DNA of 12,143 nt from a virus. Shown here piece by piece: positions 6,811 to 12,143 of this stretch. Under the pieces are notes generated by a model, which made no database searches, had not been told where the DNA came from, and saw only the letters and a program-made list of their open reading frames with translations. The number at the start of each line of letters is the position of its first letter. Position 1 is the first letter of the stretch. The translations under genes were made by a program, and so were the position numbers. Location of the stretch: IMG/VR virus record IMGVR_UViG_3300028558_000016, positions 470,014 to 482,156 of that record. One strand, given 5' to 3'.

Positions 6811-8952
6811 ATGAACAAAAATCAATTCTTTGCAAAATTTCAAAATCTAAATCTAAGACGTGAAGAATTAGAAAGACAATGGAAAGTGCATCTCGAAGAA
6901 CAAGAAGAGATGAATAGAAGATGGCAGATGTTACGTGAAGCTGAAGATGCTGAAGGTAAACAAAATTCATCGACAACTACAACTACATCTAATTCTTCGT
7001 CTTCTGCTGCATCAGCGGGTTCAGGTGGAGCTGGCGGTGGCGGAGGTAGTATAGTTATTTTGGAAGACGAAACATTTTTAGAATTTTTTAAGATAGATGG
7101 TTCTGATACTTGGAAATACTTCTTGATGAATGTTTCAGGAATCAAATCAGAACTTTTAGATAGCGGGATCTCCGCAGATTGGAGCATTGATTGGTATTTT
7201 CCTCCGGTTCAAAAGAAAGGTTATGCAGCCGTTTTTCGCGGTCCAGACACATACACTTTCATCATGATCAACACTGATGGTACTTTATTGGGATCATTTA
7301 CTACGGAAACAAACTGGTGGAATGGCGATGATTTAGACGGAAGAGCAATTGCATTTTATTATACAATAGGTTCAGATTATAACTTCATTTATTATGATGG
7401 AGAAAATTATAGACAAACTTTGTTCACTGGAAGTTTTTCAACAGGAAATATACAAAATTTTAATATAGGTACAGACTGGGATTACACGACAATAGACAAT
7501 AAAACATTGGTTACCATTGAATATTCTAATGGAGATCAAAGCTACAGAATACTTGATATACACGGCAACAACGAATTTTATTACTTGGTAAGTGGAAATA
7601 TACGTGCTTCAGTTGCCTTTTACTCATTTGGAAATTTTATTTTATTATTTCTTTATGATAACAACACTAACCAATACACCAGATTACAGCTATATAATAC
7701 AAGCGGAATTCTTCTCAGCGTAGACATTGATTTAACTGCTGTAAATATTTTTGACAATTTAGATTATAATTTTTACGGAACAAATAAACTCCAAGCCATA
7801 TTTTCAAATAGTGGAAATAATGCCATTGATTATTACATAGTAAATTACAATGGCACAACAACTAATGCAATAATAACTTCACAAATAAGAGGACCGTTCG
7901 TTTCGATTATTACTCAGACTGAAAATAAATATCCATTCAATAATTTATCTTTTGATCCAGAAGGAATATTAAACACATTTTACAGTTGGGATGGATATGA
8001 TGGTTTTATAAGAACAGGATATGCCAAATTTACATTTTTGTTTGAAGGTGATTCTGCGTATGGAGAATATTTGTTTACAAATTCAGGAGTTCCTGATAAA
8101 GGCGTTATTCCTTGGATTCAAAGTTCAACATCTGATTCAGCTGGTGTAATAGTTGACGGTCTTAACGGAAGCCTAACTAATCTTTTATTTTTTCCAGGAG
8201 GTTCTACATCTTCAATTCCGTTAGCGTTAACGTCTGACATGGACAGCATAAACAATTTTTCTTATTCTAACTGTGGAAGTAAAAAGCTTTTTTCCTATCC
8301 AGTAACTGGGTCAACCGGAACAAGATGGAAATTGTATTCAGCGGTTGGTTCTCTCTTGGGTTCTATTTTTACAACCACCAATTCATATTCAGATACGAGA
8401 TATAATTCATTTTATGTAAGACAGTATGACAGTGGGAATGAGAGATTTTGGTATTTTAATAATTCAGTAACTTCATTCACTGAAATATCTCCAGCTTTTG
8501 TTATTGATAATGTTTATCAACCTTTTTACGAGATTCCAGATAACATTGATAAGGGTCCTTTTTTATTCTTTAATATTGCAACTCCATGCGCAAGAATTCT
8601 TTCAATTGATAACACTCCTGGAACTTTGGATCTTCCACCAACATCTAATGATTATAGAATAGGACTTGCTATCGAAAATTTCTTTTATGTTTACCAAGAC
8701 ATTGATAGCAAAGTAATAATAAATCTTTATGATTTAGCAGGAACACTTTTGAACACAATATCAACTGAATTTACTTCTGTAGCTTCTCTTAACGATTATA
8801 TCTCAGTTGAACATAGATTTGTATTCGTATTTGTGGAAGGTTCAACATACACTACTTACATGATGACTCCAACTTCAGTTGAAACGGATGTTACAACGGA
8901 TGTATTAGATCGAGGAAGAATGGTTAACGACTTTGCTTATTACGATGATTAA
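6811..8952 (+). CDS. Large hypothetical protein, 713 aa, with a charged helical (coiled-coil-like) N-terminus, a Ser/Thr/Gly low-complexity linker, and a roughly 630-aa N/Y/T/S/G/F-rich beta-type domain with internal repeats
   Basis: The long ORF has no competing frames. Residues 1-50 are rich in E/R/Q/K (LRREELERQWKVHLEEQEEMNRRWQMLREAEDAE). Residues 52-80 read NSSTTTTTSNSSSSAASAGSGGAGGGGGS. The recurrent motif [YN]-x-x-G-[TS]-LL appears at about aa 166, 300, 515 and 650 (TDGTLLGSF, TSGILLSVD, AVGSLLGSIF, LAGTLLNTIS). Confidence 0.7.
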   Translation: MNKNQFFAKFQNLNLRREELERQWKVHLEEQEEMNRRWQMLREAEDAEGKQNSSTTTTTSNSSSSAASAGSGGAGGGGGSIVILEDETFLEFFKIDGSDTWKYFLMNVSGIKSELLDSGISADWSIDWYFPPVQKKGYAAVFRGPDTYTFIMINTDGTLLGSFTTETNWWNGDDLDGRAIAFYYTIGSDYNFIYYDGENYRQTLFTGSFSTGNIQNFNIGTDWDYTTIDNKTLVTIEYSNGDQSYRILDIHGNNEFYYLVSGNIRASVAFYSFGNFILLFLYDNNTNQYTRLQLYNTSGILLSVDIDLTAVNIFDNLDYNFYGTNKLQAIFSNSGNNAIDYYIVNYNGTTTNAIITSQIRGPFVSIITQTENKYPFNNLSFDPEGILNTFYSWDGYDGFIRTGYAKFTFLFEGDSAYGEYLFTNSGVPDKGVIPWIQSSTSDSAGVIVDGLNGSLTNLLFFPGGSTSSIPLALTSDMDSINNFSYSNCGSKKLFSYPVTGSTGTRWKLYSAVGSLLGSIFTTTNSYSDTRYNSFYVRQYDSGNERFWYFNNSVTSFTEISPAFVIDNVYQPFYEIPDNIDKGPFLFFNIATPCARILSIDNTPGTLDLPPTSNDYRIGLAIENFFYVYQDIDSKVIINLYDLAGTLLNTISTEFTSVASLNDYISVEHRFVFVFVEGSTYTTYMMTPTSVETDVTTDVLDRGRMVNDFAYYDD
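6964..7050 (+). other. Low-complexity Ser/Thr/Gly linker-coding segment within the 713-aa ORF
   Basis: This segment encodes NSSTTTTTSNSSSSAASAGSGGAGGGGGS. The antisense strand yields the spurious poly-Pro ORF at 6840-7187. Confidence 0.7.
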
Positions 8953-8970
8953 TCTCACAATATATAGTAA

Positions 8971-9261
8971 ATGAAATACATAATAAATGCAGACTGTTAT
9001 CTTGTAGATAATGATGGAAATATTTCTAATCTGACTAATCCTACATTTGATGTTAATTTTGGAAGTAGCACAGATGCTTCTTTAATAAAAACAGAAATAA
9101 AGAAGAGACTCGTCGCTACATTTCCATATATTAAAATCAAAGAAAGTTTAAAAAACAGAGAAGATAAAGAAGTAGCCGGAGCTGTTTCGGAAAACAGTTT
9201 ATACTACGAATTATATGTAGGAAAAACTGGAACAGAAGTAATTAAAGATAAAACAAAGTAA
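8971..9261 (+). CDS. Hypothetical protein, 96 aa
   Basis: ATG at 8971, 18 nt after the upstream stop, and 2 nt before the next gene. No recognisable motifs. Confidence 0.45.
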   Translation: MKYIINADCYLVDNDGNISNLTNPTFDVNFGSSTDASLIKTEIKKRLVATFPYIKIKESLKNREDKEVAGAVSENSLYYELYVGKTGTEVIKDKTK

Positions 9262-9263
9262 TC

Positions 9264-9617
9264 ATGATAAAGAAATTCAATGATTTTAAATTAGACGAAG
9301 CAGCTGACGTAAATTGGAGAGCTGAAAATGGCGCCAACACTTTTACATTTGAATATCCTGCGAAAGAAGGCAGCTTAATAAATCAATTCGTTGATTTTGT
9401 TTACAACAACCCAGGAAAAACAGTAAAGGATTTCTACAAATCTATCAATAGAGAATACAGACCAGGAAACAACTCCTCCTTCTTTGCTGCAATAAACCAA
9501 TCAGGAATAGTTGAATTGGTAACAGGAAAATATTACATTGGACCTAATTTTGGTAAGTGGACACAAGGACTCTTAAAGAGAGACCGATCTCCAAGAAAAT
9601 CAAATCTCGTACAATAA
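9264..9617 (+). CDS. Hypothetical protein, 117 aa, N-terminal MIKKFNDFKLDEA (weakly CTS-like, with an L-D-E site)
   Basis: ATG at 9264. It is the last gene before a strong terminator. Confidence 0.5.
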   Translation: MIKKFNDFKLDEAADVNWRAENGANTFTFEYPAKEGSLINQFVDFVYNNPGKTVKDFYKSINREYRPGNNSSFFAAINQSGIVELVTGKYYIGPNFGKWTQGLLKRDRSPRKSNLVQ

Positions 9618-9621
9618 TTCA

Positions 9622-9650
9622 ATCCCTCCTTCCTGGAGGGATTTTTGTTT
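9622..9650 (+). terminator. Rho-independent terminator with an 8-bp GC-rich stem (ATCCCTCC/GGAGGGAT), a 5-nt loop and a TTTTTGTTT tract
   Basis: A perfect inverted repeat at 9622-9629 and 9635-9642 is followed by a T-run, 4 nt after the stop of the 9264 gene. Confidence 0.75.
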
Positions 9651-9876
9651 TACATAATTCATGTTAAAACACTGATAATTATGTAACATTTTATGAACAT
9701 TATGTAACAATTAACAACAAGAATGTTCGTAAATTTGTACACGATTATACCCAATATGCTTACTAAAATACACATTTAAGTTGAACGGATGCATTAACCT
9801 GTTGAAACTCAATAAGTAACATTGCCGGCATAATTTTAACTACGTAATCAATATAAACCAATAAATAAATAAAACC
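9651..9876 (+). promoter_or_regulatory. 226-bp AT-rich non-coding region upstream of the 9877 gene; putative promoter or regulatory region
   Basis: No ORF of 60 aa or more on either strand. It contains tandem TTATG(T)AACA repeats, a MotA-box-like aTGCTTAc (about 9755-9762) with a TAnnnT about 13 nt downstream, a TAAATTTG element (9730-9737) and an A-rich leader. All of these are weak matches in AT-rich DNA. Confidence 0.3.
9679..9709 (+). repeat. Three tandem copies of TTATG(T)AACA (at 9679-9688, 9691-9699 and 9700-9709)
   Basis: Read directly: aaTTATGTAACAtt TTATGAACA TTATGTAACAatt. The approximate period is 10-11 bp, about one helical turn. Confidence 0.6.
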
Positions 9877-10278
9877 ATGAAAACCACGAGAACGTCAAAC
9901 ATCAGAAACAAAAAGAAAACAAAGAAAAACAGAGATTACTCTAAGTACCTATTCAAAGGTGAACAGTACGGTAAAGGAACTCTTGTTCATGCAGTAATCA
10001 GCGACTATGCTAAAGAGCATCCACGCACAACGGCTGAAAAACTGCAAAGCATCTTTCCAAGGAAAGTAATTCATTCAACATTTGAAGTTGTTGAAACAGT
10101 TAAGAAAGCAACAAAGGGACGTTTCTTCTTAAATCCCGATCTTCTAATTAAAACCGCAAACTCTAAAGTGGCTGTAACAAGTCAATGGAGCAAAAACAAC
10201 ATCGACTCATTCATCGATTTTGTGAAGAAAAACCTCCACATGCGGATACAGCACAGGTCATACAAAATGGCCGCTTAA
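9877..10278 (+). CDS. Hypothetical basic protein, 133 aa, with an N-terminal Lys/Arg-rich tail (RNKKKTKKNRDYSKY); possible nucleic-acid-binding protein
   Basis: ATG at 9877. The gene sits between the promoter region and its own terminator, so it looks monocistronic. Family not recognised. Confidence 0.55.
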   Translation: MKTTRTSNIRNKKKTKKNRDYSKYLFKGEQYGKGTLVHAVISDYAKEHPRTTAEKLQSIFPRKVIHSTFEVVETVKKATKGRFFLNPDLLIKTANSKVAVTSQWSKNNIDSFIDFVKKNLHMRIQHRSYKMAA

Positions 10279-10282
10279 AATT

Positions 10283-10316
10283 AAATCCCCTTCTAATTAG
10301 AAGGGGATTTTTTATT
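10283..10316 (+). terminator. Rho-independent terminator: palindrome AAATCCCCTTCTA-at-TAGAAGGGGATTT followed by a TTTTTTATTT tract
   Basis: An 11-13-bp perfect inverted repeat starts 5 nt after the stop at 10278 and is followed by a T-run. Confidence 0.75.
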
Positions 10317-10342
10317 TAACTAAACTTTACTAACTAAACTTT
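10317..10342 (+). repeat. Direct repeat TAACTAAACTTT x2 (10317-10328 and 10331-10342) upstream of the 10360 gene
   Basis: Two perfect 12-bp copies separated by 2 bp lie between the terminator and the next start codon. They may be an operator or promoter element. Confidence 0.5.
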
Positions 10343-10359
10343 TAAAAAATGGAATAGAT

Positions 10360-10644
10360 ATGAACAAAATACAATCGGAAGAAAAAAGATTAATATTGAC
10401 AATTGCTTTGAAACAAGAATTGATAAAGATCGATCCATCACACTACGTGCCAATTGAAGAATGTTACATCAAACTTGATGATGCTAAAAAAGCCTGCCCA
10501 TCTTATACCCCCACCGAAAAATTTCACTTTGATGTAGTAGAACACGGAAGAACTTCAAAAGTTCATTTCGTTAAATGTCATGATGTGTTGAATACGATAA
10601 TAATGAAAAATAATCTAATGCACTACGATTGGTATAAATTATAA
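10360..10644 (+). CDS. Hypothetical protein, 94 aa, with Cys/His residues (C35, C46, H-x-x-x-H, C-H) that could form a metal-binding site
   Basis: ATG at 10360. An upstream ATG at 10349 is followed by an immediate stop. The stop TAA at 10642-10644 abuts the terS stop on the other strand. Confidence 0.45.
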   Translation: MNKIQSEEKRLILTIALKQELIKIDPSHYVPIEECYIKLDDAKKACPSYTPTEKFHFDVVEHGRTSKVHFVKCHDVLNTIIMKNNLMHYDWYKL

Positions 10645-11445
10645 TTAGAAATTATCTTCATCTATTTGAAAACCATTTTCATCCTCGAACTTATCGTGGA
10701 CGTCATCAGCGGAATCCATTGGATTAGCAGGTCTGTTATGCGGATCTGTTAATCTTGGTTTCGTTTCTTCCTCTTTGGTTTCTTCCTTTGCATCTTCTAT
10801 TTTGCTCTTGATGGATAACATCAAACCCTTAGTTCCTCTTATCTTTAAAGAATCACCTTCACCAAGAGTTTTCATCTCATCTGGTTCATCTTTGCTTTTA
10901 TCAAGACTCTTTTGATATTCAACTCTGTCATGATCATCTTTGATCTTCTTGTAACCTTCTTCAAGAGTTATCATGTAAGCTGCTTGATGTTTTACAACAA
11001 CCATCATTTGATTTTGTAATTGTGCAAGAACCTCAAATATCCTTGGGTGAATGTTTCCCATATCAATTTCTTCCATCAACTTAATGATGGCATGCTGTGT
11101 TGTCTTCAATGAGAATATGATGTTAGATAACGTCATCTCATCAACTGCCTTCTTGTACTTAAGGTAATCGTTTTTCTTTATGATCTTAGCATCGAGGTAG
11201 AAGTCTATAACACTCTTCAAGAGTTTTTTAGATTCTCCTTCAATCTCGTCCTTGACGCTATAGAAGTCCATGTTCTTTGTTTGAGGATGTTGCACCTTAG
11301 CAAGAGGTCCTTGCTCTTCACCATTGGCGATAGGTTTATCTTCCTTCATGCTTTTCTCATTGATCTGTTCTCCTCCGAGAAGCATGTCTTCGAGCTGCTT
11401 TCTAATATTGTCTTGTGCAGCCTTTTCTTTTTTATCTTCAGCCAT
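10645..11445 (-). CDS. terS: Terminase small subunit (T4 gp16-like), 266 aa, with an acidic C-terminal extension
   Basis: The central segment HPRIFEVLAQLQNQMMVVVKHQ aligns with T4 gp16 as I recall it ([21 protein letters not shown]). The protein has a Lys/Glu-rich, coiled-coil-like composition typical of gp16. It sits immediately downstream of, and coupled to, the preceding gene in a late-gene block, although it is longer than T4 gp16. Confidence 0.65.
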   Translation of the reverse strand: MAEDKKEKAAQDNIRKQLEDMLLGGEQINEKSMKEDKPIANGEEQGPLAKVQHPQTKNMDFYSVKDEIEGESKKLLKSVIDFYLDAKIIKKNDYLKYKKAVDEMTLSNIIFSLKTTQHAIIKLMEEIDMGNIHPRIFEVLAQLQNQMMVVVKHQAAYMITLEEGYKKIKDDHDRVEYQKSLDKSKDEPDEMKTLGEGDSLKIRGTKGLMLSIKSKIEDAKEETKEEETKPRLTDPHNRPANPMDSADDVHDKFEDENGFQIDEDNF

Positions 11446-11962
11446 TTAATTCTATTTGTGTTTTTTCTCCATTCGGCATTGAATACGTTGCATCAGTTAG
11501 AAGCATGCTAAGAGGAAAATCAACTTGAAGTCCCTCATACTTCTTTGCAGCACCCTTTTTGACGTATGAAATAGTCGTATGCGGTCTGTAATTTGGAAAT
11601 GTTTCTTCATTTGGCAATACTGAAAGAGCAAGATTCATCTTTGCGAGATCTTCGCTCTCAACAGTTATCATCACAATGTCGAAATCCGGATGGTCTTCGA
11701 AAATACCAATGCTTCCAAAATTTGCTTTTGGTGGTGAGAATGTATTTAAAATTTCTGATACGTCTTCGGGTTTAACGAAGGAATAGAAACCATAAAGGAC
11801 TGTTACGTGTGGTTCGTCTTCAATTCCATGATCTTCATCAATGTCATAGACATCTTCTGGTTTGATTATCGAACAGACTTCGTCCCACTGTGGAACTTCC
11901 ATCTTCATCATAACGCATCCTCGTTTTCTCACTTTGAAATCTTTGAATGTTTCAATTGCCAT
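11438..11962 (-). CDS. 2H phosphoesterase superfamily protein (LigT-like or Acb1-like), 174 aa
   Basis: Two H-x-T-x motifs sit in the spacing and context typical of 2H enzymes: PHVTVLYG (H52, T54) and RPHTTISYV (H128, T130). The stop TGA at 11438-11440 lies 2 nt before the terS ATG at 11445, indicating translational coupling. Confidence 0.75.
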   Translation of the reverse strand: MAIETFKDFKVRKRGCVMMKMEVPQWDEVCSIIKPEDVYDIDEDHGIEDEPHVTVLYGFYSFVKPEDVSEILNTFSPPKANFGSIGIFEDHPDFDIVMITVESEDLAKMNLALSVLPNEETFPNYRPHTTISYVKKGAAKKYEGLQVDFPLSMLLTDATYSMPNGEKTQIELNG

Positions 11963-11980
11963 CTATTCTATATATCTCCA

Positions 11981-12015
11981 TAAACAAAAAGAGGGCAAGT
12001 TTTAATTGCCCTCTT
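11981..12015 (-). terminator. Rho-independent terminator on the minus strand: stem AAGAGGGCAA/TTGCCCTCTT with a 7-nt loop, followed on the minus strand by a TTTTTGT tract
   Basis: A 10-bp perfect inverted repeat lies at 11989-11998 and 12006-12015. The T-run is on the minus strand only. The loop contains the stop codon of the upstream partial ORF. Confidence 0.65.
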
Positions 12016-12143
12016 CTAAATCTAAGAATTTGTTCCAGGACCTAATAAGTCCCTCTATGTTGTCCTTGCCGACACTGTTTGCACTATGGACGTTTATGTC
12101 CACGTTCCTGAGATCGTATTTCATCTCATAGATCATCCACTTG
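12002..12143 (-). CDS. Partial ORF, with 46 C-terminal codons visible (...WMIYEMKYDLRNVDINVHSANSVGKDNIEGLIRSWNKFLDLEEGN), running off the window end. Product unknown.
   Basis: An open minus-strand frame runs from the window edge to TAA (rc of 12002-12004) inside the terminator loop. It could instead be a 44-aa ORF starting at the internal ATG. Confidence 0.3.
   Translation of the reverse strand, partial: KWMIYEMKYDLRNVDINVHSANSVGKDNIEGLIRSWNKFLDLEEGN

Follow-up and report, generated by a model that had tools for sequence, protein, structure and literature searches.

Locus and source genome

The window analyzed here is a 12,143-nucleotide stretch of the IMG/VR virus record IMGVR_UViG_3300028558_000016 (positions 470,014 to 482,156 of that record), and our subject is a gene on its minus strand that encodes a 174-residue two-histidine (2H) phosphoesterase. 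In the direction of transcription, this gene follows the 3′ end of a gene for cREC (cyclic-phosphate-processing receiver) and a terminator-like hairpin, and it runs into the gene of a probable small terminase (TerS). Beyond these lie an island of variable genes on the opposite strand and the genes for the large terminase (TerL) and the sheath.

The window matches part of a 482,059-bp ENA contig (ERZ27245401, k141_1209612) at 99.99% identity. Over the 11,499 nt compared with a 20.8-kb locus of that contig (L005) there is one mismatch, so the window represents a second, near-identical assembly or a variant. The mismatch, at window position ∼12125 (minus strand), is a His-to-Tyr change in the C-terminus of cREC (WMIHEMKY vs WMIYEMKY). 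The source is a megaphage: at the protein level, the nearest GenBank relatives of both the 2H protein and TerL are uncultured phages of 460-640 kb, at 31-37% identity, to which TerL adds the Lak phages. A megablast search of GenBank phages with window positions 10000-12143 gave no match.

The 2H protein

The 2H gene occupies positions 11438..11962 of the minus strand and is defined by its open reading frame (ORF), by Pfam and PHROG matches, by homologues and by a structure model. In the Pfam scan the protein scored 26.6 bits for 2_5_RNA_ligase2 (PF13563), 0.4 bits short of the cut-off of 27, and it matched PHROG 755 ('RNA ligase') with an E value of 7.5e-11. We collected 16 homologues with identities of 33-94%, all of which carry PF13563; PF02834 was matched by 8 of 17 sequences. 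Only two H-x-[ST] motifs occur in the protein, H52-V-T54 (CAC GTA ACA, 11801..11809, minus strand) and H128-T-T130 (CAT ACG ACT, 11573..11581, minus strand), and in an alignment both HxT motifs are invariant across 17 homologues and 57 distant relatives. The first stands without exception in the context P51-H52-x-T54, and the second is followed by a family-specific block, Y133-V-K-K136-G137-x-x-K-K-Y142. Invariant among the 16 homologues are P51, H52, T54, F88, D95, P127, H128, T130, Y133, K136, G137 and Y142.

The predicted structure (pLDDT 88) has a 2H fold with the histidines at the known catalytic positions; H52 aligns with the catalytic H50 of PDE-9, and H128 aligns with H123 of PDE-9 and with H114 of FBB1 Acb1. 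The protein is a genuine 2H phosphoesterase, and a sequence-only reading of this DNA, which had assigned the 2H fold and its catalytic histidines from the two motifs, was right on both counts. Foldseek comparison of the model with the PDB confirmed the fold without separating the subfamilies: Penguinpox cGAMP phosphodiesterase, Usb1, LigT, a cyclic phosphodiesterase (CPDase) and Acb1 were matched alike, at E values of 5e-5 to 3e-3. A Usb1-like or VP3/ns2-like activity, which would trim 3′ nucleotides or remove 2′-5′-linked oligoadenylates, is very improbable. Usb1 is among these fold matches, at 8% identity, and sequence comparison links the protein to neither Usb1 nor VP3; the evidence from neighboring genes has no specific bearing on 2′-5′ oligoadenylates.

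The start codon is ambiguous, in that one gene caller chose M18 and hence a 157-residue form. We rejected this form and favor the 174-residue one because residues 1-17 are conserved as protein and because strand β1 (residues 15-20) begins ahead of M18.

Distant kinship with Acb1

The enzyme is a metal-independent 2H phosphoesterase of a large phage-specific family that is the sister group of Acb1. A search of the PDB with the family profile returned, at E≤0.001, Acb1-type enzymes only, namely BCSR5 PDE-9 (7.3e-8) and FBB1 Acb1 (7.1e-4), followed by the LigT-like PH0099 (0.054). Alignment with hhalign to a joint Acb1/PDE-9 alignment gave a probability of 96.9% (E = 1.6e-10). When sequences were scored against the family HMM, huge-phage homologues reached 152-161 bits and gp180 of Maribacter phage Colly_1 reached 115.6 bits, whereas PDE-9 (35.2), FBB1 Acb1 (22.0), T4-type Acb1 (16.0) and E. 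coli ThpR (-0.6) remained far below. The Pfam Acb1 model (PF23474) gave the 174-residue protein 23.4 bits, below its gathering threshold of 27. Kinship with Acb1, which the sequence-only reading had put forward, is thus real but distant, and judged by its sequence the protein stands outside the Acb1 family, as a cousin. The same reading had offered a LigT-like RNA-repair enzyme as the alternative. Here the repair role gains from the gene context described below, whereas the LigT likeness finds little support at the level of sequence: although the homologues carry PF13563, there is no detectable relationship to E. coli ThpR as a representative of the LigT/ThpR-type CPDases (PF02834; hhalign probability 1.5%), and the second motif is followed by S-Y-V-K-K-G instead of the L-x-R of the LigT type.

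Acb1 (T4 gp57B, FBB1) and BCSR5 PDE-9 (PDB 7T26/7T27, 9Q2G/9Q2Y) share with the 174-residue protein the 2H fold, the HxT/HxT tetrad, an 'F-x-x-Y-x-P-H-x-T-(L/I)-(S/A)-Y' block and, by alignment, aromatics at two of the nucleobase-stacking positions. The ligand contacts of T4 Acb1 reported by Hobbs et al. are Y12, W74, F107, E141, which contacts adenine N6, and W147, the last within a C-terminal lid formed by residues 145-152. F88 aligns with W74 and F122 with F107, while the Y12 position is taken by V17 (in β1 the register comes from the sequence alignment only). The features of the lid are missing from the alignment, which shows no Trp, no W147 and no clear E141 equivalent; the C-terminus (..TYSMPNGEKTQIELNG) is modelled instead as β-strands with pLDDT 75-89. 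The protein also exceeds Acb1 in length by ∼20 residues; an additional subdomain near its N-terminus (W26, D37, Y39) and a basic insert, KKGxxKKY, have no counterpart in Acb1.

A member of the protein's own family has been assayed. The PF13563 phage family includes Colly_1 gp180, also known as 2H PDE-11, which corresponds to our protein end to end and shares with it the two HxT motifs, the 'GCVM' strand β1, W26, D37, F88, D95 and the YVKKGxxKKY block. The 174-residue protein differs from this family in its short leader, which lacks an (L/I)xE site, and in the position of its gene between cREC and the probable terS. In Doherty et al. 2025 (bioRxiv 10.1101/2025.08.21.671373), 2H PDE-11 is among the enzymes assayed and is placed outside structural group 3, the group of Acb1.

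These comparisons bear on the possibility that the enzyme is an Acb1-like nuclease that degrades the cyclic oligonucleotides of CBASS, type III CRISPR or related systems and so blunts abortive-infection signaling; it would act by 2′-OH attack through a cyclic-phosphate intermediate. We consider this possible but rather unlikely. The profile matches, the shared block and the two aligned aromatics argue for it, and a flexible, conserved N-terminal segment (F6, F9) could serve like the N-terminal lid of PDE-9. Like acb1, the gene belongs to a phage and has a hypervariable island of internal-protein type nearby, and the position of T4 acb1 beside ipI, which the sequence-only reading had cited, was borne out when we compared the T4 neighborhood (57A/dNMP-kinase/ipI). 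On the other hand, the scores of true Acb1 and PDE-9 sequences fall well short of the 115-160 bits of family members, the C-terminal lid and the E141 equivalent are lacking, Y12 is replaced, and PDE-11, the assayed member of the family, falls outside the Acb1 group. The T4 acb1 surroundings are replaced here by RNA-repair genes, and RNA-repair enzymes, not anti-defense genes, dominate among the neighbors and fusion partners. Function cannot be read reliably from sequence similarity to Acb1 alone.

RNA-repair genes upstream of the 2H gene

Most of the genes that precede the 2H gene lie outside the window, and we read them from L005. On the strand of the 2H gene their order is: 11 tRNA genes, an RF-1-domain protein, a DUF4326 protein, an RNaseH-like protein, an Rnl1-type RNA ligase, a HAD phosphatase, a 61-residue ORF, cREC and the 2H enzyme. 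The ligase (473 residues, 1.1 kb upstream of the 2H gene) matches PF09511 with 52.6 bits and phrog_562 with an E value of 2.5e-37, and it carries a KMDG motif. The HAD phosphatase (180 residues, DMDGT motif) scores 23.4 bits, just below the cut-off, for HAD_SAK_1, the 'Swiss Army Knife RNA repair' family. The full cREC gene of L005 encodes 102 residues and scores 95.5 bits; in the window it is cut by the edge (12002..12143, minus strand), which leaves 47 codons, of which the C-terminal 32 residues match PF20274 (E = 1.9e-4).

The adjacency of cREC and 2H is kept in three related contigs, one of which (L002) has a single 83-residue ORF between them. The ligase is of Rnl1 type in L003 and of Rnl2 type (PF09414) in the P0007 contig, so that a ligase occupies the same block but its type varies; no ligase was recognized in the repair block of L002.

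The tRNA array (L005 820-4147) comprises Met (2), Thr (3), Lys-UUU (2), Lys-CUU, Gly (2) and Asn genes. Two called ORFs that overlap it on the minus strand (162 and 157 residues) are probably spurious. The RF-1-domain protein (135 residues, GGQ motif; coordinates 5379-5786 and 5097-5234 of L005) is conserved at the head of the repair block in L005, L002, L003 and the P0007 contig, and in L002 a small PCRF-like ORF stands ahead of it. We infer a likeness to the ArfB-like peptidyl-tRNA hydrolases of ribosome rescue, and together the tRNA array and this protein fit a wider island for translation maintenance.

Neighbors and fusions across the family

A profile search of 1.84 billion representative sequences found 6,062 cluster representatives of the 2H family at E≤0.001, 874 of them at E≤1e-30. 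Among the 150 best-scoring members, about half are multi-domain proteins. When we scanned 67 of the multi-domain relatives, the fused partners included a PolyA_pol/CCA-adding head in 15, DUF5661 in five and ART-PolyVal in four.

To compare gene neighborhoods, we fetched 80 IMG/VR loci, of which 76 were grouped into 40 lineages (clusters at 70% identity), called ORFs and clustered the neighbors without prior labels. The commonest neighbor family proved to be a HAD_SAK_1 phosphatase (68.6 bits), present in 10 of the 40 lineages and always on the same strand as the 2H gene; these neighbors are homologous to the HAD of the source genome (phmmer E values down to 1e-27). A CCA-adding enzyme was fused or adjacent in 11 lineages, and HAD, CCA-adding enzyme or cREC was present in 14. 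Other neighbors were NUDIX (six lineages), YqeY (six), calcineurin-like phosphoesterase (five) and cREC itself (two). Arrays of tRNA genes within 8 kb of the 2H gene were seen in 4-5 of the 40 lineages and lend weak support. Searches of the 80 loci with phmmer, using Rnl1, the RF-1-domain, RNaseH-like and DUF4326 proteins, the TerS-like protein and TerL of the source genome, gave no counterparts near the 2H genes, and the linkage to a ligase is therefore seen only in the window's own lineage. Five further recurrent neighbor families (271, 130, 304, 315 and 513 residues) gave nothing useful in Pfam or PHROG. The neighbor context is thus not uniform, and where it is recognizable it is one of RNA-end chemistry. 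The Acb1-like signal belongs here to a family that counts thousands of phage proteins and has RNA-repair enzymes as genomic partners, which bears on the 'anti-CBASS' annotation of metagenomic phages.

In many of the lineages from L014-L093, the 2H domain lies within giant proteins of 1,300-3,200 residues, together with CCA-adding and in some cases HAD domains. A 635-kb uncultured phage (LR745206.1, L011 4501-5817) carries a 2H domain fused to a DEDD (RNase_T-type) 3′-5′ exonuclease, with the leader MKLKKYKQFIKES, and in a 484-kb phage (LR756508.1, L012 5035-8088) the 2H gene adjoins a family-B DNA polymerase that has below-threshold Hint/intein-like Pfam matches.

Proposed healing of RNA ends

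From the fold, the catalytic motifs, the family membership, the gene neighborhood and the domain fusions described above, an order of steps, a substrate (RNA>p) and a biological target can be proposed. We modestly favor the interpretation that the 2H enzyme heals RNA ends that carry a 2′,3′-cyclic phosphate. Ends with a 2′,3′-cyclic phosphate and a 5′-OH would arise when tRNA or other RNA is cut by ribotoxins of the host, anticodon nucleases among them, or by other metal-independent RNases. The HxT/HxT tetrad of the 2H enzyme would convert the cyclic phosphate into a monoester, the HAD phosphatase with its DMDGT motif, perhaps together with cREC, would strip the resulting phosphate, and the Rnl1-type ligase with its KMDG motif would finally join the RNA again. 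In the relatives, fused CCA-adding enzymes would rebuild the 3′ ends of tRNA. We prefer RNA repair to an Acb1-like role because Rnl1, HAD, cREC and 11 tRNA genes lie upstream of the 2H gene and because its relatives are linked or fused to repair-type HAD and CCA-adding enzymes.

The proposal has precedents. Iyer, Burroughs, Aravind et al. (PMC7824862, PMC9503650) predicted that 2H, cREC, HAD and RNA ligases clear cyclic ends in jumbo phages, and the source locus, with its Rnl1-type ligase, DxDxT-type HAD, cREC and 2H genes on one strand beside a tRNA array, matches that prediction. A role in RNA repair for the 2H enzymes of large phages has thus already been described computationally, and this gene adds a member. 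The known healing-and-sealing systems include T4 Pnkp with Rnl1 and fungal and plant Trl1 (an Rnl1-like ligase, a kinase and a 2H CPDase); the pairing of an Rnl1-like ligase with a 2H CPDase is the logic of Trl1 (PMC7145591). The source locus differs from these pathways in three respects: no 5′-kinase was found nearby, a terminator-like hairpin stands between its ligase genes and the 2H gene, and the latter is translationally coupled to the probable terS.

Several observations weigh against RNA end healing. The only PDB sequence matches of the family profile at E≤0.001 are Acb1-type enzymes, and according to Doherty et al. (bioRxiv 10.1101/2025.08.21.671373) most of the phage 2H groups tested cleave some cyclic oligonucleotide in vitro, a result that speaks for an Acb1-like activity as well. 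Scans of the nine upstream proteins and the gene calls for the remainder of the 20.8-kb locus yielded neither a polynucleotide 5′-kinase nor a Walker A motif. Three enzymes credited with cyclic-phosphate chemistry stand side by side, and with HAD and cREC present, RNA ends may not need the 2H enzyme, which may have another target. A conserved hairpin and a promoter-like motif stand between the 2H gene and the ligase, HAD and cREC genes, and it is to the probable terS that the 2H gene is coupled. Among relatives of ∼35% identity the context varies, with a DEDD-exonuclease fusion beside gp32 in one case and a position beside DNA polymerase in another. Finally, the four contigs that share synteny are close relatives, and their conservation partly reflects ancestry.

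The co-occurrence of cREC and 2H also admits a reading in which the two act on small molecules. In this case the 2H enzyme would hydrolyze ADP-ribose 1″-2″ cyclic phosphate (Appr>p) or related compounds, formed during 2′-phosphate removal or used as immune signals, and not RNA ends. We regard this as improbable: KptA/Tpt1, sirtuin, Macro and ART genes were not seen in the 20-kb source locus, ART-PolyVal occurs in only four of the 67 fusions scanned, and NUDIX is a less frequent partner than HAD or the CCA-adding enzymes.

The genes from the tRNA array through the RF-1-domain protein, Rnl1, HAD and cREC to 2H form a compact set, suited to reconstitution of a kinase-less or non-T4 type of healing and sealing and to tracing the reason for the presence of three different cyclic-phosphate enzymes at one locus.

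N-terminal leader and the variable island

The first 14 residues of the 2H protein form a leader, MAIETFKDFKVRKR (11921..11962, minus strand), that is conserved in close homologues and of which residues 1-10 are modelled with pLDDT below 50. Its start, MAIETFKDFKV, resembles both the T4-type internal protein start MKTFKEF and the leaders of ORFs in the adjacent island. This island, which the sequence-only reading had described as internal-protein-like, comprises 10 variable ORFs on the plus strand (4616..10644), opposite to the probable terS and terL genes between which it lies. Several of its products begin with a leader that resembles the capsid-targeting sequence (CTS) of T4 internal proteins: we identified MKRIKLFEAFINE, MNHIKLFEDFQGK, MKHLKLFEGFLNE and MIKKFNDFKLDE, three of which end in (L/I)xE.

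The (L/I)xE motif is of the type cleaved by the T4 prohead protease. No such site follows the leader of the 174-residue protein.

Across the family, leaders of this kind are common. Of 81 free-standing members, 41 carry an aromatic-xx-aromatic motif within their first 14 residues, as against 11% of internal windows, and in 20 of the 81 the leader is combined with [ILVMF]xE (for example MKTYREFVED, MKTWKQFLLE|KQ, MKTWKQFLLEKQ and MIKYYNDFINESKE). The other 40 lack the aromatic motif, and aligned examples among them have no N-terminal extension at all. T4-type Acb1 itself begins with MEFKDF. We did not adopt the 'FKDF' segment as a pure capsid-targeting sequence, since it lacks (L/I)xE and since the same segment aligns with the Acb1 N-terminus. 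The 2H leader is possibly either an N-terminal lid as in PDE-9 or a vestigial CTS-like leader.

A more speculative proposal, which we think unlikely, is that the 2H enzyme is made late with TerS, packaged by way of its leader and injected with the DNA, so that it would act on immune signals or RNA from the first seconds of infection. We allow for it because of the likeness of the leaders, the late-type placement with the probable terS, the occurrence of GATATATA at both the 2H gene and the island, and the presence of relatives in polyvalent proteins. If it were true, injected enzymes would include the 2H phosphoesterases as a widespread class; the leader common to 2H proteins and internal-protein-like cassettes offers a direct and cheap hypothesis, namely that the phage delivers some 2H enzymes along with its DNA.

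The contents of the island vary. Four of its ORFs (235, 91, 131 and 117 residues) are alike only in the T4-CTS-like leader, M..(I/L)KLFE.F(I/L)NE or MIKKFNDFKLDE, and two more (138 and 100 residues) have a second leader, MN(T/I)F(D/N)(V/I)..R......(Y/F)EE(F/W)(L/M)K(D/N)RK. At 2152-4234 (minus strand), L004 carries another set of island ORFs with the same leaders. The 713-residue island ORF (6811-8952, plus strand) has a low-complexity segment rich in Ser, Thr, Gly and Ala near residues 50-80 and a 700-residue counterpart in the P0007 contig.

Expression signals and terminase genes

The terminator-like hairpin between cREC and 2H (11987..12017, minus strand) has the cREC stop codon in its loop. 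It is probably real, because a hairpin with a different stem sequence stands at the same place in L003 and L002; the sequence-only reading, which had described the 2H gene as insulated by an upstream terminator of its own, is probably right in this respect. At 11969..11976 (minus strand), 7-14 nt upstream of the 2H ATG, lies GATATATA, and (G)ATATATA occupies the same position in all four related loci (L002, L003, L004 and L005). The window holds three copies of GATATATA, against 0.34 expected. Besides the one at the 2H gene, these are at 4577-4584 (plus strand), where the first island gene follows after 32 nt, and at 2855-2862 (minus strand), ∼190 nt upstream of the sheath gene and inside the 3′ end of terL; the octamer is also noted at 6092-6099 of L005. 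The motif is a candidate phage promoter element, possibly a late one. With this promoter-like motif of its own and the terminator upstream, the 2H gene is probably on a different expression schedule from the ligase genes, and it appears to be transcribed together with the probable terS.

The sequence-only reading had placed a 2-nt gap between the 2H gene and the downstream gene, which is wrong: the TGA that ends the 2H gene (11440..11438) falls within the following ORF, which starts with the ATG at 11445..11443, and the genes overlap by 8 nt (11438-11445, ATGGCTGA). In relatives the same pair overlaps by 8, 14, 11 and 20 nt.

The downstream gene (10645..11445, minus strand) encodes a highly conserved protein of 266 residues with 47 homologues, modelled as all-helical with long helices at residues 91-128 and 134-185. 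Its identity as TerS, as named in the sequence-only reading, is probable: there is no Pfam and no PDB match, and phrog_735 ('terminase small subunit') is matched weakly by 3 of 23 homologues. A 20-column motif, HPRIFEVLAQLQNQM, aligns with T4-type gp16; it covers the P, R, E, L, Q and M that are invariant in the family and has PRxxEVxAxLxxQM in common with gp16. The gene order of the 266-residue protein, the opposite-strand island, TerL and sheath resembles genes 16-17-18 of T4. TerL itself (2740..4554, minus strand) is a large terminase of T4 type (PF03237, 74.3 bits; PHROG terminase large subunit, 2.9e-52).

A second terminator-like hairpin, of 16 pairs, lies at 10721-10755 (plus strand), where it would serve the plus-strand island from within the 3′ coding region of the convergent 266-residue gene. 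It falls in the segment that encodes the conserved RLTDPxNRPxNP and is kept in L004 (1842-1808, minus strand).

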